From Demequinaceae bacterium (GTDB taxonomy: Bacteria > Actinomycetota > Actinomycetes > Actinomycetales > Demequinaceae): 32,000 nucleotides of DNA. Where the stretch lies: NCBI GenBank assembly GCA_965250005.1, contig OZ252279.1:1650001-1682000 (forward strand). Direction: 5' to 3'. Position 1 is the first letter of the stretch, and every line of letters begins with the position of its first letter. The notes beneath the pieces are model-generated. The model worked only from the letters and a program-made list of their open reading frames with translations, searched no databases and had not been told where the DNA came from. Shown piece by piece: positions 14,541 through 23,503 of this stretch. The translations under genes were made by a program, and so were the position numbers.

Positions 14541-15566
14541 ATGTCGCCTTCACCGACCCATTGGCACGCAGGCCCGCTGCAGATGCTGCTCGAGACTCCG
14601 GGTGTGACCGATGTGCTTGTCAATGGCCCCGAGGACGTGTGGATGGACAGAGGCGTAGGGCTCGAACAGGCGTCCGCACAGTTCGCGGGGGTGGGGGCAG
14701 TGCGTGAACTCGCCGTGCGGCTCGCGTCGCTTGGCGGGCGTCGTCTGGATGACGCGAGCCCGCTCGTGGACGCGCGGCTTCCTGACGGGACTCGGTTGCA
14801 CGCGGCCCTTCCGCCGGTGGTGGACGGGTGCACCAGCATTTCGCTGCGGACCGTGCGGCGCCTCGCGCTCACTCTTGAGGACCTCGTTGTTGGTGGGACC
14901 GTGGCGCCGGCCATGGCGCCGCTGTTGGCGGGACTAGTCGAGCGGCGCGCGAACGTGTTGATTACTGGAGCCACCGGGAGCGGGAAGACCACCCTGTTGG
15001 CGACGCTACTGTCGCGCGTTGACCCTGCTGAGCGCATCATCGTGATCGAAGAGGCGGGAGAGGTCATGCCTGACCATCCTCACGTGGTCCGGCTGGTCGA
15101 GCGACGGGCGAACGTCGACGGCGCGGGCGCGGTTTCGCTTAGCCGCCTGGTGCGCGAGGCGTTGCGTATGCGGCCCGACCGGATCGTGTTGGGTGAATGC
15201 CGGGGGGCGGAAGTCCGAGACGTCCTCACGGCTCTCAACACGGGACACCGCGGCAGTTTCGCGACCCTCCACGCCAATGCCCCTGGCGACGTGCCCGCAC
15301 GGCTGGCCGCTCTCGGCGCGCTAGCCGGAATGGATGCGCGCGCCACGGATCTGCACGCCGCCGCCGCGTTTGATGCGGTCGTGTATCTAGACAAGACCGA
15401 GGCCGGCCGCAGGGTCTCTGAGATCGCGGTTCTTGGGGTGAGGCGTGCGGGAGGTGGCGCCACTGCGTTGACGGTCGAGACGGCGCTGACGGCGGACCCG
15501 TCGGGTGGTGTAGTCGAGGGACCTGCATGGGCTGACATTGGCGTTCCATGGTTGGCCGCCGCGTGA
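14541..15566 (+). CDS. tadA: TadA/CpaF-type secretion ATPase (actinobacterial helicase/secretion-neighbourhood ATPase type)
   Basis: Walker A GATGSGKTTLL, Walker B-like IIVIEE, GECRGAE and the His-box TGHRGSFATLHAN are present. It is followed by platform, pilin and TadE-like genes. Confidence 0.9.
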   Translation: MSPSPTHWHAGPLQMLLETPGVTDVLVNGPEDVWMDRGVGLEQASAQFAGVGAVRELAVRLASLGGRRLDDASPLVDARLPDGTRLHAALPPVVDGCTSISLRTVRRLALTLEDLVVGGTVAPAMAPLLAGLVERRANVLITGATGSGKTTLLATLLSRVDPAERIIVIEEAGEVMPDHPHVVRLVERRANVDGAGAVSLSRLVREALRMRPDRIVLGECRGAEVRDVLTALNTGHRGSFATLHANAPGDVPARLAALGALAGMDARATDLHAAAAFDAVVYLDKTEAGRRVSEIAVLGVRRAGGGATALTVETALTADPSGGVVEGPAWADIGVPWLAAA

Positions 15567-16531
15567 CGCCCGGAGGGCCGGGCGTGGATGCTCGGCTGGG
15601 CCACGCTGAGCTGATCGACGCCGTTGGCCTGCTGCGCGCTGGGGCCTTGCCCAGTGACGTGTGGAGCGAAGTCTTTGGAGTGGAGGAGGGCGCGAACGGG
15701 CTTCCGGTCCTGGCCGGCTCGAGCGAAGGCGACCTAGGTGGGCCCGGGCGGGATGAGGCCGTACGCGCCGCCGTCCGAGCCGCGGCGCAACTTTCGATGG
15801 TCGCGGGAGCCTCGCTCGCCGACGTGCTTGAGCGTGTGGCGTCAACGCTGCGTGACGAGGCCTCAGCAAGACTCGCGCGCGATGTCGCCATGGCGGGGCC
15901 GCGGGCGAGCGCGGCAGTACTCCTGTGGCTCCCGGTCGGTGGGCTGGCGCTCGCGATGGTAGTCGACGGCGGCGCGGCGCGCGTGCTGTTTCTCACGCCT
16001 GTGGGTTGGGTGCTCGCCGCGCTGGCGGCGGGTCTGACCCTCGGCGGGCGGGCTTGGATGAGGTCGCTACTACGGACCGCTGAAGCCGCAGGAACTGGTG
16101 GCGGGCACGTGGCCATGGCGCTCGCACTAACGGAAGCAGCCGTAGGGGCCGGGCTCGACGTGAGCAGCGCAATCGGCGTCGCAGGCGAGTGCCTCGGCGG
16201 GGACGTTGGTCCCCGCCTCCGGGCCACGGAACAGGCGCTGGCACGGGGAGAAGCGTGGGCGCCCGCATGGAGTCGCGCGGGTCCAGACCTGGCCCCCCTG
16301 GAGCGGGCGCTGCGCCACGCCTGGAGGGCAGGCGCCTCTCCCGTACCCGCGCTTCGCGCTGGTGCGGACGCGCTGGCAGAGTCCAGCCGCGCCCAGGGCG
16401 CACGGGCCGCAGCTCAGATGGAGGTGCGGGCCACGCTCCCACTCGCCGTGTGCTTGCTGCCTGCTTTCGTGCTCGTCGGAGTAGTGCCACTGGTGGTTTC
16501 CGTCGCCATCAGTGCGCGGGTGGACCTCTAG
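15548..16531 (+). CDS. Type II secretion system F-domain platform protein, apparent TadB-TadC fusion
   Basis: A single 327-codon frame holds two successive T2SSF-like modules. Each is a helical soluble segment followed by hydrophobic helices: about residues 20-150 ending LLWLPVGGLALAMVV, and about residues 190-327 ending LPLAVCLLPAFVLVGVVPLVV. The start is uncertain; a GTG at 15563 overlaps the tadA stop. Confidence 0.7.
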   Translation: MVGRRVTPGGPGVDARLGHAELIDAVGLLRAGALPSDVWSEVFGVEEGANGLPVLAGSSEGDLGGPGRDEAVRAAVRAAAQLSMVAGASLADVLERVASTLRDEASARLARDVAMAGPRASAAVLLWLPVGGLALAMVVDGGAARVLFLTPVGWVLAALAAGLTLGGRAWMRSLLRTAEAAGTGGGHVAMALALTEAAVGAGLDVSSAIGVAGECLGGDVGPRLRATEQALARGEAWAPAWSRAGPDLAPLERALRHAWRAGASPVPALRAGADALAESSRAQGARAAAQMEVRATLPLAVCLLPAFVLVGVVPLVVSVAISARVDL

Positions 16532-16575
16532 TGGCGAACGTGTTTCGGGATGGACCCGGCAAGAAGGAGAGAACT

Positions 16576-16737
16576 ATGAAGAGAAATGTGCGCAGCGATC
16601 GCGGATCGGCAACCACGGAGTACGCAATGGTGACGGTCGCGGCTGCAGGATTCGCCGGGCTACTGGTGGTGCTACTCAAATCGCCCGAGGTGCGCGACAT
16701 GCTCCTGGGAATCATCAAGTCCTCGCTGGGCGGCTAG
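16576..16737 (+). CDS. Flp-like pilin (DUF4244-type, Rv3656c-like), 53 aa
   Basis: An AAGGAGA RBS at 16564-16570 precedes the ATG at 16576. The product is MKRNVRSDRGSATTEYAMVTVAAAGFAGLLVVLL..., with a Flp-type G/xxxxEY motif followed by a hydrophobic helix. Confidence 0.78.
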   Translation: MKRNVRSDRGSATTEYAMVTVAAAGFAGLLVVLLKSPEVRDMLLGIIKSSLGG

Positions 16738-16741
16738 CCAC

Positions 16742-17083
16742 GTGAGGCGCCGCGCCGCAATGGGCGAGACGGGCGACAGGGGAAGCGCGACGGTGGAGTT
16801 CGCGATGCTTTTGCCAGCCGTCGTCATGATTCTCGCGACCTTGCTTGGGTCCGTTCAGTGGGCTACAGCGCAGATCCGGGTTGAGAGCGCCGCCGCCACG
16901 GCGGCGCGAGTTGCGATCGTAGGGACGGACATCGAGTCGAGGGCAGCCGTCACTCAGGCCGCAGGTTCCGGCGTGCTGGTCTCGATTGTGCGGGACGGCG
17001 CGTGGATCCGCGTGACCGTGACCGCGGCTACCACCTGGGGCCTGCCGGTGCGAGGGACAGCGGTTGCGCTCGCTCAGGAATAG
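16742..17083 (+). CDS. TadE-family pseudopilin-like protein
   Basis: The N-terminus RGSATVEFAMLLPAVVMILATLLG is a TadE-like motif and lies directly after the pilin gene. The start is either the GTG at 16742 or the ATG at 16760. Confidence 0.7.
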   Translation: MRRRAAMGETGDRGSATVEFAMLLPAVVMILATLLGSVQWATAQIRVESAAATAARVAIVGTDIESRAAVTQAAGSGVLVSIVRDGAWIRVTVTAATTWGLPVRGTAVALAQE

Positions 17084-17447
17084 CGGCGAATCGGGCCGCT
17101 CTCGCGAGCACGGGTCCGCGACGCTGGTCATGGTAGCCGTCATTAGCACTGTCGCGGTGCTCGCCGCGTTAGTCGCGTCGGTTGGCGCGGTGCAGGTGGT
17201 CTTGGTGCGAGCTCAGGGGGTTGCTGACGTAGCCTCGATTGCGGGCGCGTACGAGGCTCGAGACCTACGCATCGGTGGGCGCGATGCCACTCAACCCGCT
17301 TGCGCGATCGCCCGCGAAGTCTGTCGCGTGGCGGGTGCAACGCTGGTCACTTGTGTCGCCACCCGAGCCGGGACGGTGACCGTCACCGTGGCGTTGTCAG
17401 CCGCAGGCCTCGCCGTGACGAGGACGGCGAGCGCAGGCACGGGCTAG
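17064..17447 (+). CDS. Rv3654c-type TadE-like protein
   Basis: N-terminus HGSATLVMVAVISTVAVLAALVA, and it is the last gene of the tad-like operon. The TTG start comes from the track and overlaps the previous gene by 20 nt. Confidence 0.62.
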   Translation: MRSLRNSGESGRSREHGSATLVMVAVISTVAVLAALVASVGAVQVVLVRAQGVADVASIAGAYEARDLRIGGRDATQPACAIAREVCRVAGATLVTCVATRAGTVTVTVALSAAGLAVTRTASAGTG

Positions 17448-17473: not shown

Positions 17474-17511
17474 AGAGGGCCCGGACTACCAAATGGCGGT
17501 CCGGGCCCTCT
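17474..17511. terminator. Hairpin 1 between the convergent tad operon and the membrane-protein gene
   Basis: AGAGGGCCCGGAC (17474-17486) pairs perfectly with GTCCGGGCCCTCT (17499-17511), giving a 13-bp stem with a 12-nt loop. Confidence 0.55.
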
Positions 17512-17579: not shown

Positions 17580-18725
17580 TTATGCCGTCGGAGTCGTTTC
17601 GACCCACTCGGCGCCGTTCCACTCCCACGTGTGGAGTGTGTCCTCTTCTTCGTATTCAATAACGGCGTCCTTGTGGAAGTAGCCCTTGGGGACTTCACTG
17701 CACCCAGGCCACCACTTGTAAGTTTCTGGGTCCATGAGAATCCAGGACTCTGAACCTTTGTGGCAACTGTACTGGTGATCTGCGCCATAGATTGACGCGA
17801 TGTCGCCTTCACACTTGTACTGGCCTCCACCGATCGAGCCCCAGGTTCCCTGGTCGTCAAGGTGGCGGTAGCCGTAGTACGAGTTGCTGGATCCACTCTC
17901 GCAGACGGCGAGCTTGTCGTAAGACGGCGAGTAGTTGCCGTAGTACCAAGAACTGGTCGCCTCGTCGTACCATGATGCACAGGCGTAGTATTGCTCGTCG
18001 AAGAAGTAGAAGTAGCCGGGGTTGGACTTCCACTCGTCCTTGTTGCAGTTGTAGTACCCAGCGCCTTCAGCGCGGTTTGGTCCGATGCCGTCCGCGTTGC
18101 ACTCGATGAAGGAATCTACGTAGTGATCCCAATACCAGTTGGGCTTCACATCCCAATTGTTGATGTCGCAGTTCCAGTACTTGTACGGCTTGGTGTCGTG
18201 GTCGTATTCGACGCACGTGGGCGCGGGGTCTGGTTCCGGCTCCGTCCTTGGCGGAGTATTGGCGGCGGCGGCGGCGGCGGCGGCTTCGGCGGCGGCGGCG
18301 GCTTCGGCGGCGGCCTTCTCGGCCTCGTCAGCTGCCTTCGCAGCCTCCTCGGCCTGTTTGGCCGAGAGCTTCTCGGCACTGAGGTTGGCCGCGATCTCCA
18401 GTTCTTCGTAGATCTTCTGGAGATACTCTTCTTTCGCTCCGACGTCATCGCCCAACGTATTGCTGAAGTTTTCGTTGAGACCGTTCTCAATGAGGTTGCG
18501 GTCGCGGAACCCCGGGTCTTCTTCGGCGTTGAGGCCCACGAAGAATTGCGCACCTAGGGCGCCAAGGACCATGGCGCTGACCGAACCGGCGAGGGCGGCC
18601 GAGCCCTGGCGAATCGCGCGCTTGCGTTTGGTGGACGCAACCAACTGGTCGACGACGGTACCTGAGGGCGCGTAGCCCGTGGAGCCCATCTGACCCAACT
18701 GGTCCATCTGCTCGTTAATGTTCAC
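17580..18725 (-). CDS. Single-pass membrane protein P1 (381 aa): short cytoplasmic N-terminus, TM, Ala/Glu-rich stalk, Cys/aromatic-rich ectodomain. Candidate anti-sigma or sensor partner of the upstream ECF sigma.
   Basis: The GTG start overlaps the sigma gene stop (GTGA at 18722-18725). KRKRAIRQ precedes the TM helix GSAALAGSVSAMVLGALGAQFFV, predicting an N-in topology. The C-terminal ~210 aa carry 9 Cys and many Tyr/Trp. I do not recognise the family. Confidence 0.7.
   Translation of the reverse strand: MNINEQMDQLGQMGSTGYAPSGTVVDQLVASTKRKRAIRQGSAALAGSVSAMVLGALGAQFFVGLNAEEDPGFRDRNLIENGLNENFSNTLGDDVGAKEEYLQKIYEELEIAANLSAEKLSAKQAEEAAKAADEAEKAAAEAAAAAEAAAAAAAANTPPRTEPEPDPAPTCVEYDHDTKPYKYWNCDINNWDVKPNWYWDHYVDSFIECNADGIGPNRAEGAGYYNCNKDEWKSNPGYFYFFDEQYYACASWYDEATSSWYYGNYSPSYDKLAVCESGSSNSYYGYRHLDDQGTWGSIGGGQYKCEGDIASIYGADHQYSCHKGSESWILMDPETYKWWPGCSEVPKGYFHKDAVIEYEEEDTLHTWEWNGAEWVETTPTA
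18262..18315. repeat. Trinucleotide tract (GGC)8-TTC-(GGC)5-TTC-(GGC)3 inside P1
   Basis: Read directly from the sequence. On the coding (minus) strand it encodes the poly-Ala/Glu run AAAEAAAAAEAAAAAAAA in the stalk. Confidence 0.9.
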
Positions 18726-19279
18726 GATTTTGCCTTCCTTGCGGGAGTCTCCTGGATGGTGCTGTAGTCGACACCCTGTGAGGGGTTGTCCTCCAGTGCA
18801 CCCAGATGGCCGCGCAGCTTGACGGCTGCGTCAGAGAGGTAGCGCCGCACGGCGCCTTCAGAAATACCGAGCTCGCGGCCGATGGCCACGGCGGTCAGGT
18901 CGTCGTAGAAGCGAAGCACCGTACAAGCGCGCTCGCGGGGGCTCAGGTGGCGCAGGGCCTCCTGAAGGTCCGTCCGGAACTCTACGGCCGGGGCGTCAGA
19001 CTCGGCTTCGTCATTGCGGTCCAGCAAGTGGAACACACGCTTCCATGCGACGTCTTTGCGGCCAGCATCCATGTGGGCGGTAAACATTGCCCGCCGAACA
19101 TAGGATTCGGCTTCCCCCATCGACACGCTGGACTTGCCGCGCGAGAACGTCCTGACCACGGCGTCGTGGAAGAGGTCCTCAGCGTCGCGCCCATTGCCGG
19201 TGAGGAGGTACCCGTAGCCCACGAGGGCCGATCCACGCCTCCGCACGAGCTCTTCTAAGGTTTCGCTCCAATTCGGCAT
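18722..19279 (-). CDS. ECF-type sigma-70 family factor, sigma-1 (185 aa; actinobacterial SigE-family-like)
   Basis: I moved the start to the ATG at 19279, preceded by GGGAGG. Region 2 is LVGYGYLLTGNGRDAEDLFHDAVVRTFSR...YVRRAM. Region 4 is LSPRERACTVLRFYDDLTAVAIGRELGISEGAVRRYLSDA. The N-terminus MPNWSETLEELVRRR aligns with MSDWQSTMEALVRDR of the paralog. Confidence 0.85.
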   Translation of the reverse strand: MPNWSETLEELVRRRGSALVGYGYLLTGNGRDAEDLFHDAVVRTFSRGKSSVSMGEAESYVRRAMFTAHMDAGRKDVAWKRVFHLLDRNDEAESDAPAVEFRTDLQEALRHLSPRERACTVLRFYDDLTAVAIGRELGISEGAVRRYLSDAAVKLRGHLGALEDNPSQGVDYSTIQETPARKAKS

Positions 19280-19326
19280 GGTTACCTCCCTTGCTGGGCG
19301 GAGCAGACTTCCGCCTCTAATTACCC

Positions 19327-19369
19327 ATACGAGCGGGGCGGGGGAAACCGTGGGGCATTCTGGCAAATG
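19327..19369 (-). promoter_or_regulatory. Conserved upstream block A, a candidate ECF-type promoter of sigma-1/P1
   Basis: On the minus strand it reads ...CCCCACGGTTTCCCCCGCCCCGCTCGTAT, and its nearest end is 48 nt upstream of the sigma-1 ATG. It matches block B (20831-20873) at 29 of 43 positions in an ungapped hand alignment, and at 23 of 29 in the core. Confidence 0.4.
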
Positions 19370-19385
19370 TGAGTCAACTCACATT
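19366..19385. promoter_or_regulatory. 20-bp palindrome AATGTGAGT-CA-ACTCACATT immediately upstream of block A
   Basis: Perfect 9-bp arms with a 2-nt centre. A 2-nt loop is too short for an RNA hairpin, so this looks more like a dimeric protein operator. Confidence 0.35.
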
Positions 19386-19529
19386 CCCCGCAAGCCCAGT
19401 GGTTTCGCAACGGCGACGCCTGTTCTCCAGTATCCCGGCCGCGCGCTCAAGAAGTAAGGGTCCGGTTCGTGGTCATTGTCACAGTTTCCAACAGTCGTTT
19501 CGGCGCGATCTGCACGCTGAACGCGACAG

Positions 19530-19574
19530 AAAACCCGGCCGACGCGAAGGCTGAGGGTCTTCGTATCGACCGGG
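19530..19574 (-). terminator. Intrinsic terminator after P2
   Basis: In the minus orientation, CCCGGTCGATACGAAG pairs with CTTCGCGTCGGCCGGG over 16 positions (2 mismatches, 1 G-U) around a 9-nt loop. TTTTCTG follows directly. It begins 20 nt after the P2 stop. Confidence 0.6.
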
Positions 19575-19593
19575 CTGGCTCTATATGCGTCCG

Positions 19594-20733
19594 TCAGGCG
19601 CTGGGTGACGGCTCCGGGTCGGGCGCCGGAGTGGTCTCAACCCACGCGGACCCGCTCCACGCGAACGTGCGGCCCTCATACTCGATGACCGAGTCCTTGT
19701 GGAAGTATCCCGTGGTGCTGCAACCGTCGATGAAGTCGCCGTAGACGAACCACTTGTAGTTCGCGTCCGTTGGGAACCACTTGCCCGTGGGGTTGGTGGC
19801 AACCGGGTGCTCGCCCTCGGGAATGCAACTCCATCGGACGGTCGTTCCGTACTTGTTCTTAAGTCCACCGGTGCACTTGTAGTCGCCTCCGCCAATCGAG
19901 GACCAAAGGTCGCCAATATATTGGTAGCCGTAGACCTGATTGTCGGTTTTGGAGCACTGAGCTAGTTTGCCGTAGCCCACGTTGTAGGCCCCTACACTCC
20001 ACGTACCAGAAGCCTCGTCGTAGAAGTCGACGCACTCGAGCACTTCTCCTTTGAAGTAGACGTACCCAATCGCAGGAACCCACTCGCCCTTGCCGCAGTC
20101 GTATGCGATGTTGGGGTGCGGGTTGTCACCGCACGTGCGGGCGACCCAGTCGAAGTCATCCCAGTACTCGCCGTCTGAAATGCGGTAGACCTTCTCGTCT
20201 GGATCGCAGTCGTTGTACTTGTACCCGTAGTCGTACGGTTCGCAACTACTACTACCGCCGCCGCCCTCGTCCTTGGGCGTCGAATTTGAGTCCTTGTCCG
20301 CGGCTTCTTTCGCCTCTTTCGCTGCCTTGGCGGCGGCTTCTTCCGCGGCCTTCGCGGCGGCCGCCTCCTTTTCGGCTAGCTCCTCGATCTGGATCTTGGC
20401 GGCAACCCTTAGTTCGTCGTAGATCTCCTTGAGGTATTCGTCTTTTGTTCCGTCGTCTTTGCCGAACGCCGAGTCATCGGTCCCATCGAAATTGTTCTCA
20501 ATGAGATTGCGGTCGCGGAAGCCGGGGTCATCCACTTCGAAGTCGACGAGGAACTGCGCCCCGAGCACCCCGAGGACAACCGCGCTTACGGACCCCACCA
20601 AGGCAGCCGAGCCGTGGCGAATGGATCGCGCACGCTTGGCGCGTGCGTGCAACTGGTCGACGACGGCATCCGAGGCGGCGTAGCCCACAGATCCCAACTG
20701 CCCCAATTCATCGATCTGTTCATTGATGTTCAC
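19594..20733 (-). CDS. Single-pass membrane protein P2 (379 aa), paralog of P1 with no sigma gene of its own
   Basis: I moved the start to the GTG at 20733, 8 nt after GGGAG, so that VNINEQIDELGQLGS aligns with MNINEQMDQLGQMGS of P1. The architecture is the same: basic stretch, TM, DPGFRDRNLIEN, Ala/Glu/Lys stalk, then an ectodomain with 9 Cys at matching positions and the shared C-terminal GYFHKD-VIEYE...AWVETTP. Confidence 0.7.
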   Translation of the reverse strand: MNINEQIDELGQLGSVGYAASDAVVDQLHARAKRARSIRHGSAALVGSVSAVVLGVLGAQFLVDFEVDDPGFRDRNLIENNFDGTDDSAFGKDDGTKDEYLKEIYDELRVAAKIQIEELAEKEAAAAKAAEEAAAKAAKEAKEAADKDSNSTPKDEGGGGSSSCEPYDYGYKYNDCDPDEKVYRISDGEYWDDFDWVARTCGDNPHPNIAYDCGKGEWVPAIGYVYFKGEVLECVDFYDEASGTWSVGAYNVGYGKLAQCSKTDNQVYGYQYIGDLWSSIGGGDYKCTGGLKNKYGTTVRWSCIPEGEHPVATNPTGKWFPTDANYKWFVYGDFIDGCSTTGYFHKDSVIEYEGRTFAWSGSAWVETTPAPDPEPSPSA

Positions 20734-20830
20734 TGTTCTGACTCCCAAGTGCTCGGTCCTCAGCGGGTACCGGTGTGGCGCCCAAGACCTAATTGATCGG
20801 AGCCGCCCATAAGAGCGCCTCTACCAACTA

Positions 20831-20873
20831 ATACGCGTGGGGGCGGGAAAACCTTGGGGGTACTTGTGAAATC
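20831..20873 (-). promoter_or_regulatory. Conserved upstream block B, a candidate promoter of P2
   Basis: On the minus strand it reads ...CCCCAAGGTTTTCCCGCCCCCACGCGTAT, and its nearest end is 98 nt upstream of the P2 start and directly after the terminator hairpin of the upstream operon. Its similarity to block A is described under that feature. Confidence 0.4.
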
Positions 20874-20886
20874 GGGCGCAAACGCC

Positions 20887-20924
20887 CACGGCCCCCACAT
20901 CCCGATGGGGGTGTGAGGGCCGTG
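20887..20924 (-). terminator. Long hairpin after the P3 gene
   Basis: CACGGCCC-C-CACATCCC-GATG-GGGGTGTG-A-GGGCCGTG forms two 8-bp helices with single-nucleotide bulges. It starts 35 nt after the P3 stop. On the minus strand it is followed by GGCGTTTGCG. Confidence 0.55.
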
Positions 20925-20958: not shown

Positions 20959-22815
20959 CTAGTTGGTTGTGACCGTCACCGTTCCCAACGATGCCCACAT
21001 CTGCAGTTCCACCCATTGGTACGACGAGTCGCGCTCGGGCGCGATCGAAATGGTGTCCGGCTCTGGATCGATCGCGATGCCAGGTTCCGGCGCCCCGTAG
21101 AGGACGTCTCCAACGTACGTCTCGAGGTGAACTGACTGTTGGATCAGTAGCGTGTACTCGCCCGCGCGGAGCTCTGCTGGGCCGTTCTCGCTCCAGCAGG
21201 TGTTCACTTCGCGCCACAGATAACTACCGGCCAGAGATTCACCGGGAGCCAACTCGCCCCAGTTGGCTTGGTCCCCCTCGGGCGATGCCGCGAAAGCAGG
21301 CTCTACCGTGGCGGTGCTTCCCTCCGACTGGCGCGCCGCAAGCTCGGCATCTTGAATGTCGGCGGTGTCGCCGTAGCGGTTGATCTCCGTTGGCCAGCCC
21401 TCAGCAACGACCACCCCGTCTTTGATGAGGTAGACATTGCGGCTTGGCTGTCCGTAGAAACCGGGGATCGAGAACTCCGAGGCGTTTGTCACGGAGATCG
21501 CGACTTCGGGGTTGTTGTCGATCACCCATCCGTAGCTCACGCCCAAGCGCGACGGAAATTCGGCTTGGACATCGAGCCAGCCGAGATCGGCTGACACTTC
21601 GGGGAACCCTGCCTCGCCGTCGCCCCAGCTACATCCATAGAACGAGCGCTCGACGGGCTGCCCGAGTGCAGGGTCAGTGTCGTTCCACCCGCGGCCCTCT
21701 GAGTCGTCAGACTGCATAATCCACCGTGACGTCCCCGGCTCCATGCCCCAAACGTTGTTCTGGGCAGAGGTGCTGAACAGATCGCGAGCGAGTTGGGGCG
21801 TCAGGAAGTCGTCCGGAAGGACTGGCGGGACCCACGGTTCAGGAATGTACTGGCCAAACGGGTCCTCAACTGGATCTCCCGCAATGATGAACGGGATGGG
21901 CTCGCCCGTCGTCCGGAACTGGTCGTAGACGTACGGCTCGATCTCCAGGCTAGTGACGTCGGCGCCCCCCGACTCGTCTTTCGCGTCGGGCAACTCGGTC
22001 ACGAGGGGATCCGTCGCGGGATCCGGTTCGATGCTCGGGACGCCCGGATCCACTGACGTCTCAGGGTCCGCGTTTGGAGGCAAGACTTCGATGCTGGGCT
22101 CTGGAGCAGGTTCCGGCTCTGGAGCAGGCAAGGGTTCGATGGCGGTCTCGTCGTAATACGCAAACGACTGGCTCACAAGCAGGTCATATTTGCTTGCAGG
22201 CAGCGGCTGGCCGTCGAAGCAAGAAACAAACTCAGCCATAGTCACCAATTCAAGCGATGCGCCCTCGGGGAGCTCAAGCACAGTCAGTTCGGACCCGTCA
22301 GCGGGAACGGCCACGGCGACCACCATGCCGTCCCACAGCACTACAGCAGACGCGTGCGATGCGCGAATGTCCTGCTCGACGCTTGCGTTGGTGCTCGCGG
22401 TGAGACTGTACGGAACACTGGCAGTTGAGCCGCCCTCGACTTCCTGGTTCTCAGCCCAGTCGACGGTGAGAGAAAACGCACCATCGCCGTAGCCCCAGTC
22501 CTGCAATGGGTAGGAGCCGCAATAGCCCCAGTCCGCGAGGCGAGACATCTCGGCCGCCGCGTCACTGCTGAGGGACGAGCCGCCATCCTCTGCAGGTGCG
22601 GGCAGCGCCGTTGCAACTTCTTCTGAGGCAGCCGTGGGGTTGATGACGCCGATCGCGATGAGTGCCGCTGCGCCAGCGCCGGCGAGCGCGTTGCCGCCCA
22701 TTCGTGCACCTCGCTGGACGCGCACGCGCCGGGAGGCCGCAGCAACGGAAACGGATGCGTCTGAGACCGGCGCGCGATCTGCGGCGCCGTGAAGCGCGTC
22801 TGAGAGCTTCGTCAT
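20959..22815 (-). CDS. Single-pass membrane protein P3 (618 aa) with a duplicated two-cysteine ectodomain and a Pro/Glu/Asp-rich linker. Candidate partner of sigma-2.
   Basis: The ATG overlaps the sigma-2 stop (ATGA at 22812-22815). The N-terminus has about 40 residues ending RRVRVQRGAR before the TM helix GGNALAGAGAAALIAIGV. The two ectodomain modules share YCGS/YGCS, TNAS, VVLWDGMVVA/VYLIKDGVVVA, LPEGASL/LAPGESL and SCF...YDLLVSQS/TCW...YTLLIQQS. Confidence 0.7.
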   Translation of the reverse strand: MTKLSDALHGAADRAPVSDASVSVAAASRRVRVQRGARMGGNALAGAGAAALIAIGVINPTAASEEVATALPAPAEDGGSSLSSDAAAEMSRLADWGYCGSYPLQDWGYGDGAFSLTVDWAENQEVEGGSTASVPYSLTASTNASVEQDIRASHASAVVLWDGMVVAVAVPADGSELTVLELPEGASLELVTMAEFVSCFDGQPLPASKYDLLVSQSFAYYDETAIEPLPAPEPEPAPEPSIEVLPPNADPETSVDPGVPSIEPDPATDPLVTELPDAKDESGGADVTSLEIEPYVYDQFRTTGEPIPFIIAGDPVEDPFGQYIPEPWVPPVLPDDFLTPQLARDLFSTSAQNNVWGMEPGTSRWIMQSDDSEGRGWNDTDPALGQPVERSFYGCSWGDGEAGFPEVSADLGWLDVQAEFPSRLGVSYGWVIDNNPEVAISVTNASEFSIPGFYGQPSRNVYLIKDGVVVAEGWPTEINRYGDTADIQDAELAARQSEGSTATVEPAFAASPEGDQANWGELAPGESLAGSYLWREVNTCWSENGPAELRAGEYTLLIQQSVHLETYVGDVLYGAPEPGIAIDPEPDTISIAPERDSSYQWVELQMWASLGTVTVTTN

Positions 22816-23375
22816 GAGAAATTCCTTTCGGGGTCGATGGGCTCGTAGGGCGAGTTGACTACAGGTGCGGTCTCAATGTTGGTGTCCTCGAGGGGACCCA
22901 GCGCCAATTCCATGCGAGCGATGCCGTCGCTCAAGTAGCGCTTGATGCTGCCCTCCGCGAGCCCCAGTTGACGGCCGATTTGCGGCACTGTGAGGTCATC
23001 GAAGAAGCGCAACACGACGCACGCACGTTCGCGCGGCGGAAGTGTTCCCAGGGCGGTCGCAACGTCGGCGCTCAAGTCAATTGCGGAGGCCGCGTCGTCT
23101 GCCTGTTTGCCCGGACTAAAGAGATGTTGTACTCGTTGCCACCGCTGGTTGCGGCGGTACTGATCGATATAGACGGAGGTGATCGCTCGTCGTACATAGG
23201 CCTCTGCCTTGAGCGAGGTGAGCCCCGGTCGAGGCCGCGAAAACGTGCGCACGAGCGCATCCTGAACGAGGTCCTGCGCCCGCGTCGAGTTCCCGCAGAC
23301 TATATAGGCGTATCCCAGAAGGGCGCGCTCGCGGTCGCGAACGAGTGCTTCCATGGTGCTCTGCCAATCGCTCAT
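22812..23375 (-). CDS. ECF-type sigma-70 family factor, sigma-2 (187 aa), paralog of sigma-1
   Basis: I placed the start at the second ATG of GGAGGAATGATG. Region 2 is LLGYAYIVCGNSTRAQDLVQDALVRTFSR...YVRRAI. Region 4 is LPPRERACVVLRFFDDLTVPQIGRQLGLAEGSIKRYLSDG. Confidence 0.85.
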   Translation of the reverse strand: MSDWQSTMEALVRDRERALLGYAYIVCGNSTRAQDLVQDALVRTFSRPRPGLTSLKAEAYVRRAITSVYIDQYRRNQRWQRVQHLFSPGKQADDAASAIDLSADVATALGTLPPRERACVVLRFFDDLTVPQIGRQLGLAEGSIKRYLSDGIARMELALGPLEDTNIETAPVVNSPYEPIDPERNFS

Positions 23376-23503
23376 CATTCCTCCGTTGGGCTCTTCGATT
23401 TGAAGGCCCTTCTCGAATACGTGACGCCCGCCGGTCGCGAATCGTTGGGTCCAGTTGCCCGGCACCCCCCATGTTCCCCTAGACTCGCCTTCTACTTACG
23501 TAC

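Follow-up and report, generated by a model that had tools for sequence, protein, structure and literature searches.

An extracytoplasmic function (ECF) sigma factor together with a single-pass membrane protein whose N-terminus is cytoplasmic is the standard design for an anti-sigma system bound to the membrane. Membrane anti-sigma factors without similarity to the known ones exist, and an example is RsbN, the anti-sigma factor of sigma-BldN in Streptomyces, which carries a class III anti-sigma domain (PMC6101532). In CnrY and NepR, a class II two-helix clamp surrounds the sigma factor and a short segment can suffice (PMC6101532). Here we describe two paralogous genes, P1 and P2, in a 32,000-nt stretch of a Demequinaceae genome (GCA_965250005.1, contig OZ252279.1, positions 1,650,001 to 1,682,000; in the following, the window). 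P1 directly follows the gene of an ECF sigma factor, here called sigma A, and both P1 and P2 end in a nine-cysteine domain rich in Tyr and Trp. Judged from the sequence, we lean towards P1 being a membrane-anchored anti-sigma factor of sigma A, with the nine-cysteine domain as an extracytoplasmic sensor or ligand-binding module. A preliminary description of the domain had overlooked this context, with P1 as the conserved partner encoded downstream of an ECF sigma factor. The coordinates of all features are given in Table 1.

The linkage of P1 to sigma A was followed through 25 related loci. In every one of them (25/25) the sigma A ortholog, 74-81% identical to the window copy, ends 0-25 nt ahead of the P1 homolog, and in the window the GTG start of P1 overlaps the sigma A stop codon by 4 nt (GTGA). 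The two genes are adjacent and co-oriented, as is expected of an anti-sigma factor gene, and we infer that they are co-transcribed. Sigma A matched the Pfam models Sigma70_r4 (1.2e-13), r4_2 (4.6e-11) and, weakly, r2, and the NCBIfam model TIGR02937 (4e-18). In the P1 homologs, the first 63 residues, which comprise the cytoplasmic segment and the transmembrane helix, showed 40-70% identity, whereas the ectodomain showed 24-35%. The mean pairwise identity within the family was 0.55 for the cytoplasmic 40 residues, 0.25 for the ectodomain and 0.13 for the linker. This gradient of conservation fits a conserved cytoplasmic partner with a fast-evolving, exposed sensor.

The membrane topology of P1 was deduced from its hydrophobicity profile. 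With a Kyte-Doolittle window of 19 residues the best segment was 45-63 (mean 1.71), and the runner-up reached 0.96. Since this sole hydrophobic span is preceded by the KRKRAIRQ cluster, the N-terminus is placed in the cytoplasm by the positive-inside rule. An extracytoplasmic location of the Cys-rich C-terminal domain is supported by this prediction and is consistent with the oxidising exterior. One transmembrane helix, with the N-terminus in the cytoplasm and the C-terminal domain outside it, is the topology of an anti-sigma factor that is membrane-bound. The juxtamembrane motif, DPGFRDRNLIEN in P1, is conserved in the family as DPxFRDRNxIxN.

To describe the promoter, the regions upstream of sigma A were aligned (21 distinct sequences). 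They share the consensus CCCCA(A/C)(G/T)G(G)TTT ... CGTA(T/C), in which the spacing from CCCA to CGTA is invariant at 23 nt. The element was found at this fixed spacing in 22/22 upstream regions, that of P2 among them, and a scan of the window returned the two copies of Table 1 as the only exact intergenic matches. In 19 of the 21 regions ahead of sigma A, a TGTG-N8-CACA site is centred 21-22 nt upstream of the element; it occurs once in the window and is absent upstream of P2. The window copy is a perfect TGTGA-N6-TCACA, which we take to be the CRP/GlxR consensus. The CCCCA...CGTA element may be an autoregulated ECF promoter. In the proposed mechanism, the N-terminal segment of P1 would be the sigma-binding element and tether sigma A at the membrane, and a signal at the ectodomain, or damage to it, would free sigma A. 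The release could be proteolytic, with regulated cleavage close to the juxtamembrane motif and inside the membrane, or conformational. Freed sigma A would then transcribe its own operon from the conserved CCCAxGGTTT-N-CGTA promoter, and P2, which carries the same promoter, would be co-regulated as a second partner whose sensor domain has diverged.

Several observations weigh against an anti-sigma function of P1. No anti-sigma domain model of Pfam or NCBIfam was matched by P1, P2 or the 19 family members scanned, and the N-terminal profile found no match among the PDB sequences. The promoter could also be read by sigma B, a second ECF sigma factor encoded in the window, or by another sigma factor. 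For the N-terminal segment of P1 itself, Pfam and the PDB sequences gave no match, and matches of the N-terminal profile to NccX and PsaF were rejected (E of at least 0.18, transmembrane region only). Class I anti-sigma domains consist of a three-helix bundle plus a fourth helix and comprise about 80-90 residues. The cytoplasmic part of P1, with about 40 residues, is too short for such a domain, and the class I types of RseA, RsiW, RskA, ChrR and ZAS were rejected, as no zf-HC2/RskA-type model of Pfam or NCBIfam was matched by P1, P2 or the 19 members.

The length of the P1 N-terminus is compatible with a class II domain of the CnrY and NepR type, where sigma is bound by a very short segment, so that some 40 residues could be enough; CnrY, too, is anchored in the membrane. 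In contrast to P1, the periplasmic part of CnrY is short and the sensing is done by the separate CnrX protein, and neither CnrY nor NepR matches P1 in sequence; no match came from the Pfam models either. RsbN resembles P1 in spanning the membrane once, with the N-terminal part in the cytoplasm and a large C-terminal domain outside it, in being encoded alongside or controlled by an actinobacterial ECF sigma factor, and in being confined to one lineage without similarity to other anti-sigma factors (PMC6101532). It differs by its cytoplasmic domain of 117 residues, compared to about 40 in P1, and the two share no sequence similarity. The anti-sigma activity of RsbN and the structure of its complex were shown experimentally (PMC6101532), whereas the role of P1 is deduced from sequence.

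That no anti-sigma domain was detected also speaks for the main rival to the anti-sigma reading, which we regard as rather unlikely. Here, P1 and P2 would be sigma A-dependent surface effectors (wall- or glycan-binding, adhesive or structural) that are co-transcribed with sigma A and do not regulate it, and the role of the conserved N-terminus would be in membrane insertion or in another contact within the cytoplasm. The overlapping position right after the sigma gene, strictly conserved in 25/25 loci, argues against such a role. So does the finding that the cytoplasmic 40 residues are the best conserved, which would be needless for a mere membrane anchor.

The size of the family was determined by several searches. 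The P1 ectodomain by itself returned nothing in a word-indexed homolog search, and full-length P2 returned 9 proteins. With the P1/P2 profile, 1.84 billion representatives were searched exhaustively by HMMER, which gave 51 proteins, of which about 14 were full-domain relatives, and a 19-sequence profile retrieved 15 proteins. When one genome per GTDB species was scanned, 15 loci were found, all in metagenome-assembled genomes (MAGs) labelled Demequina, Demequinaceae, Actinomycetes, Actinomycetales or Actinomycetota; a first scan of the species genomes, with patterns too specific to P1/P2, had found nothing. The closest relatives of P1 are the short metagenomic fragments P0010 and P0014. Two members have a named source, a Demequinaceae MAG and Demequina sp. 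TTPB684 (CP096184.1, gene at L004 10001-11104), and both are annotated as 'hypothetical protein'. The family is tiny: its members fall into roughly 30-40 sequence clusters and come without exception from Demequina, Demequinaceae or related MAGs, and no description of it was found in the literature. In two 'MFD' MAGs the P1 homolog is broken across reading frames (L017 6001-7240, L020 6001-7339); these splits are probably assembly indels rather than pseudogenes.

Along their full length, P1 and P2 share 43% identity (BLASTP, E = 4e-82). Each has nine cysteines, all within the C-terminal ~215 residues, at positions 171, 186, 209, 227, 249, 275, 305, 321 and 342 of P1 and 164, 176, 201, 213, 234, 260, 287, 303 and 338 of P2. 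The preliminary description had reported nine cysteines common to the C-terminal ~210 residues of both proteins, and its counts and all 18 tripeptide contexts are correct. In a MAFFT alignment 8 of the 9 are in register and the third is shifted by 1-2 columns. The aromatic character of the domain, also described earlier, was measured for P1 against 7175 residues of the other window proteins. The ectodomain contains 11.6% Tyr compared to 2.4% (5-fold up), 6.5% Trp compared to 1.9% (3.4-fold up), 5.6% Asn compared to 2.1% and 4.2% Cys compared to 0.5% (about 8-fold up), while Arg is 6-fold down (0.9% compared to 5.8%). Extracellular binding modules typically have such an aromatic, acidic and disulfide-rich composition, which would also suit a surface effector. 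The motifs IGGG-YKC and GYFHKD-VIEYE, which had been named as conserved, exist, but their conservation is limited to the P1/P2 subgroup; other family members have SG-xTCTG and YY...PP-GW in their place.

For the cysteine census, 27 sequences were aligned and the residues numbered as in P1. The number of cysteines ranged from 4 to 11 per member, and the nine-cysteine pattern was found in P1, P2 and a few relatives but is not family-wide. C305 and C321 (C-x15-C) are invariant (27/27). For C249 and C275, 17 sequences have the two together, the other 10 have neither, and in no case was a single one found. C171 and C186 co-occur, the second cysteine being at one of two alternative positions four residues apart, and C209 and C227 vanish jointly when their module is deleted. 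The ninth cysteine (C342, GCS) is in the same column in 6 sequences, elsewhere in others and missing in about nine, and P0010 and P0013 have eight cysteines and no ninth. One free thiol, as had been suggested from the odd number, is plausible for P1 and P2 but is not a feature of the family, since the ninth cysteine is not fixed and is absent in about a third of the members. The preliminary description had held that poor conservation of the cysteine pattern in homologs would speak against its proposal. Nominally, the pattern is poorly conserved; it is, however, modular, and the losses are paired and not random. The paired gain and loss therefore favours disulfides rather than refuting them. 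Because the cysteines are present or absent in pairs and the domain has an internal repeat, the connectivity is predicted to be 1-2, 3-4, 5-6 and 7-8. The ectodomain likely has four sequential disulfides, C171-C186, C209-C227, C249-C275 and C305-C321, with C342 as a variable extra.

The internal repeat was detected by a self-comparison of the family profile with hhalign, where ectodomain residues 9-33 aligned with 50-74 (E = 9e-5) and, more weakly, residues 42-82 with 138-186. The ectodomain is built of repeated modules of ~35-45 residues and ends in a WxWxGxxW hairpin. The module can be written as C-x14-17-[YF]-x-C-x3-5-W-x4-8-aromatic and includes the sub-motifs YKYWNCDINNW and YYNCNKDEW. 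The recurring aromatic-aromatic-x-C-x3-4-W sub-motif of the preliminary description is thus a true internal repeat. AlphaFold2 with the 27-sequence alignment gave a model with a pLDDT of 93.2 and a pTM of 0.78, which is all-beta, its ~22 short strands forming one hairpin after another. When the alignment consisted of P1 and P2 alone, no usable model was obtained (pLDDT 36).

Neither sequence nor model could be placed in a known family. Pfam, NCBIfam and PADLOC had no significant match to P1 or P2, the single PHROGs match lay within the low-complexity linker and was not relevant, and ectodomain profiles found no match among the PDB sequences. A Foldseek search with the ectodomain model gave no significant match, with a best E of 0.39 in the PDB (TM score of at most 0.2) and of 0.098 in BFVD. 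The earlier statement that the domain is unplaceable in any family therefore stands for all these databases, and the Pfam search that had been proposed with it found no confident match to P1, P2 or the 19 members scanned. The search with P1 and P2 gave a sub-threshold match of 16.6 bits to the Transglycosylase-like domain (PF06737), which was found in 1 of the 19 members and rejected at 16.6-17.2 bits, the gathering threshold being 27 bits. The domain family is new and lineage-restricted, and its confidently predicted hairpin-repeat fold has no match among the databases searched.

The top Foldseek matches, all at noise level, were fibronectin F1 modules, cysteine-rich domains of the tumour necrosis factor receptor (TNFR), the adenovirus fibre and TcdA repeats. 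Disulfide-stapled hairpin arrays (fibronectin type I modules, TNFR cysteine-rich domains) and hairpin solenoids (the combined repetitive oligopeptides, CROPs, of TcdA and the glucansucrase repeats) share with the ectodomain a general design, in which short hairpins in tandem, with a Cys pair inside each, make up an elongated binding surface outside the cell. The ectodomain differs from these hairpin-module arrays in its cysteine spacing and shows no sequence similarity to them, and the structural matches stay at noise level (E of at least 0.39, TM score of at most 0.2).

The remaining 37 matches of the exhaustive HMMER search were Kelch or FG-GAP_2 repeat proteins, which aligned only with the last ~25 profile positions, in 4-11 stretches each. 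They fall at profile positions ~210-240 (TWEWNGxxWVETTP), and the bacterial Kelch/FG-GAP_2 blade hairpin DTWEWDGxxWxxxTP indeed resembles the last ~25 residues of P1 and P2. This terminal TWEWNGAEWVETTP hairpin is located at 17583-17650 in P1 and at 19612-19670 in P2. These 37 proteins, matched around positions 210-240, would be the evidence for regarding the ectodomain as a degenerate beta-propeller, a reading that we consider most improbable. The motif occurs once in P1, whereas membership in Kelch or FG-GAP calls for at least 4 tandem blades, so that no propeller is possible with one hairpin copy, and the rest of the domain is unrelated. In addition, the Pfam Kelch and FG-GAP models matched neither P1 nor P2 nor the 19 members scanned, and the AlphaFold2 model is a chain of hairpins for which propeller matches in Foldseek were at noise level (TM score of at most 0.2). 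The Kelch-like hairpin is a shared motif and not a sign of propeller membership.

A resemblance to small carbohydrate- or cell-wall-binding modules had also been proposed, and it received no support from any test that was run: no model of a carbohydrate-binding module (CBM) or lectin was matched. Pfam gave no match at E <= 1 to CBM5/12, hevein, LysM or choline-binding repeats, and Foldseek gave no significant lectin or CBM match to the ectodomain model. A CBM5/12 chitin-binding domain sequence was rejected at an hhalign probability of 3.7%. That no CBM, lectin or wall-binding model or fold was matched also counts against the surface effector.

P2 lies between a gene for a 618-residue protein and sigma A. 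Its open reading frame spans 19594-20748, and the likely true start is the GTG at 20733, because it is aligned with the P1 start and ribosome-binding site (Shine-Dalgarno). The resulting 379-residue product is 100% identical to the public protein P0001. No copy is found at this place in 7/7 family members with looked-up contigs, and P2 is a lineage-specific extra copy. Because a copy of the promoter element precedes it, P2 is a duplicate that took the sigma A promoter along, without the palindrome. In two further Demequinaceae MAGs, tandem P1-like genes with differing ectodomain subtypes follow sigma A (L021 and L025, Table 1), and in both pairs the first copy is without the terminal WxWxGxxW hairpin. 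Since these tandem pairs exist besides P1/P2, duplication and divergence of the sensor is recurrent. Both findings can be read in favour of surface effectors, as P2 carries a promoter copy of its own and lacks an adjacent sigma gene, and recurrent tandem duplication with diverging ectodomains (L021, L025) recalls surface-protein families.

On the minus strand, the gene order from 23465 to 17580 is sigma B, the 618-residue protein, P2, sigma A and P1, and beyond sigma B follow the genes for an H+-pyrophosphatase, NrdD and TopA. The G+C content of the window is ~64%. Contigs were looked up for seven family members (L001-L010; L002 comprises only sigma A, the homolog and the Tad part). They have the order sigma B, a protein of ~570-625 residues without Pfam match, sigma A and the P1 homolog, with Tad genes in convergent orientation. 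Sigma A and sigma B are 47% identical. Sigma B and the 618-residue protein form a second pair of a sigma factor and a membrane protein, which lies upstream of sigma A-P1 on L001 and L003-L010. The 618-residue protein had no match in Pfam, NCBIfam, PADLOC or PHROGs and is a further putative anti-sigma factor with a different ectodomain. A relation to the P1 family was rejected, since hhalign gave a probability of 12% and aligned only the Arg-rich and transmembrane region. A GC-rich hairpin pair is located 3' of its stop codon at ~20870-20915.

The neighbouring Tad/Flp pilus genes raise the question whether P1 and P2 serve this system, for instance as a surface or anchoring factor associated with the pilus. 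In the window, as on every looked-up contig (L001-L010), sigma A-P1 adjoins the Tad genes (T2SSE, T2SSF, DUF4244, TadE), but this synteny could reflect the mere close relatedness of the genomes. The two groups of genes are convergent and separated by a terminator-like hairpin, likely a bidirectional terminator. The sigma A-type promoter motif was not found ahead of the Tad genes of the window, and neither P1 nor P2 is similar to any Tad component. We therefore regard a function in the pilus system as very unlikely.

Table 1. Location of the genes, protein segments and regulatory elements. Coordinates refer to the window unless a locus (L) is named.
Feature	Coordinates	Strand	Description
P1 gene	17580..18725	minus	381 residues, GTG start; putative anti-sigma factor, single-pass type II membrane protein; open reading frame with G+C at third codon positions (GC3) of 0.77
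P1 residues 1-40	18606..18725	minus	predicted cytoplasmic N-terminal segment, MNINEQMDQLGQMGSTGY...KRKRAIRQ; best-conserved region of the family
P1 residues 41-63	18537..18605	minus	predicted single transmembrane helix with many Gly, Ala and Ser residues
P1 residues 64-166	18228..18536	minus	predicted extracytoplasmic juxtamembrane motif DPGFRDRNLIEN, EYLxxIYxEL segment and low-complexity Ala/Glu/Pro linker; GCn repeats
P1 residues 167-381	17583..18227	minus	nine-cysteine Tyr/Trp-rich ectodomain, predicted beta-hairpin chain
P2 gene	19594..20733	minus	379 residues from GTG 20733; P1 paralog of the same architecture
P2 residues 159-379	19597..20259	minus	nine-cysteine ectodomain and short Pro-rich tail
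Sigma A gene	18722..19279	minus	ECF-type, sigma-70 family; 185 residues from ATG 19279, longest open reading frame to 19366
Promoter-like element	19328..19354	minus	CCCACGGTTT...CGTA upstream of sigma A; 23 nt from CCCA to CGTA
Palindrome	19368..19383	unstranded	TGTGAGTTGACTCACA, perfect TGTGA-N6-TCACA; upstream of the sigma A promoter element
Second copy of the promoter element	20832..20858	minus	CCCAAGGTTTT...CGTA upstream of P2; no CRP-like palindrome
618-residue protein gene	20959-22815	minus	single-pass protein; overlaps the sigma B stop codon; no Pfam match
Sigma B gene	22812-23465	minus	ECF sigma factor
Inverted repeat	17474..17511	unstranded	18-nt arms, 2-nt loop; separates P1 from the convergent Tad genes
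Tad/Flp pilus cluster	14541-17447	plus	T2SSE ATPase, T2SSF, DUF4244 pilin-like, TadE-like and one further small protein
Tandem P1-like genes	L021 4863-5765 and 5953-7047		
Tandem P1-like genes	L025 5992-6918 and 7139-8221		

An ECF sigma factor with a membrane partner is of a known kind; new is the family of unmatched fold, with four likely disulfides and a variable thiol, that is strictly associated with an ECF sigma factor. A more far-reaching suggestion, which we make only tentatively and hold to be doubtful, is that the tandem disulfide-stapled, aromatic-rich beta-hairpin modules form an undescribed fold class and act as the extracellular sensor in a membrane anti-sigma factor of a new and very short type, specific to Demequinaceae-like actinobacteria. 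Recurrent duplication and rapid divergence of the sensor would then tune one conserved ECF sigma factor to several external ligands, and the CRP/GlxR-type site would add a control of the cyclic AMP type.

Since the family is narrow, the immediate general impact is modest. The domain family is new in that a structure predicted with high confidence was matched by no database model or solved fold. Should the 40-residue N-terminus truly bind sigma, the range of minimal anti-sigma domains would be extended. For Demequinaceae, actinobacteria of marine and sediment habitats, there is hardly any experimental genetics, and the strictly conserved ECF sigma module offers an entry point to a signalling pathway in this family.

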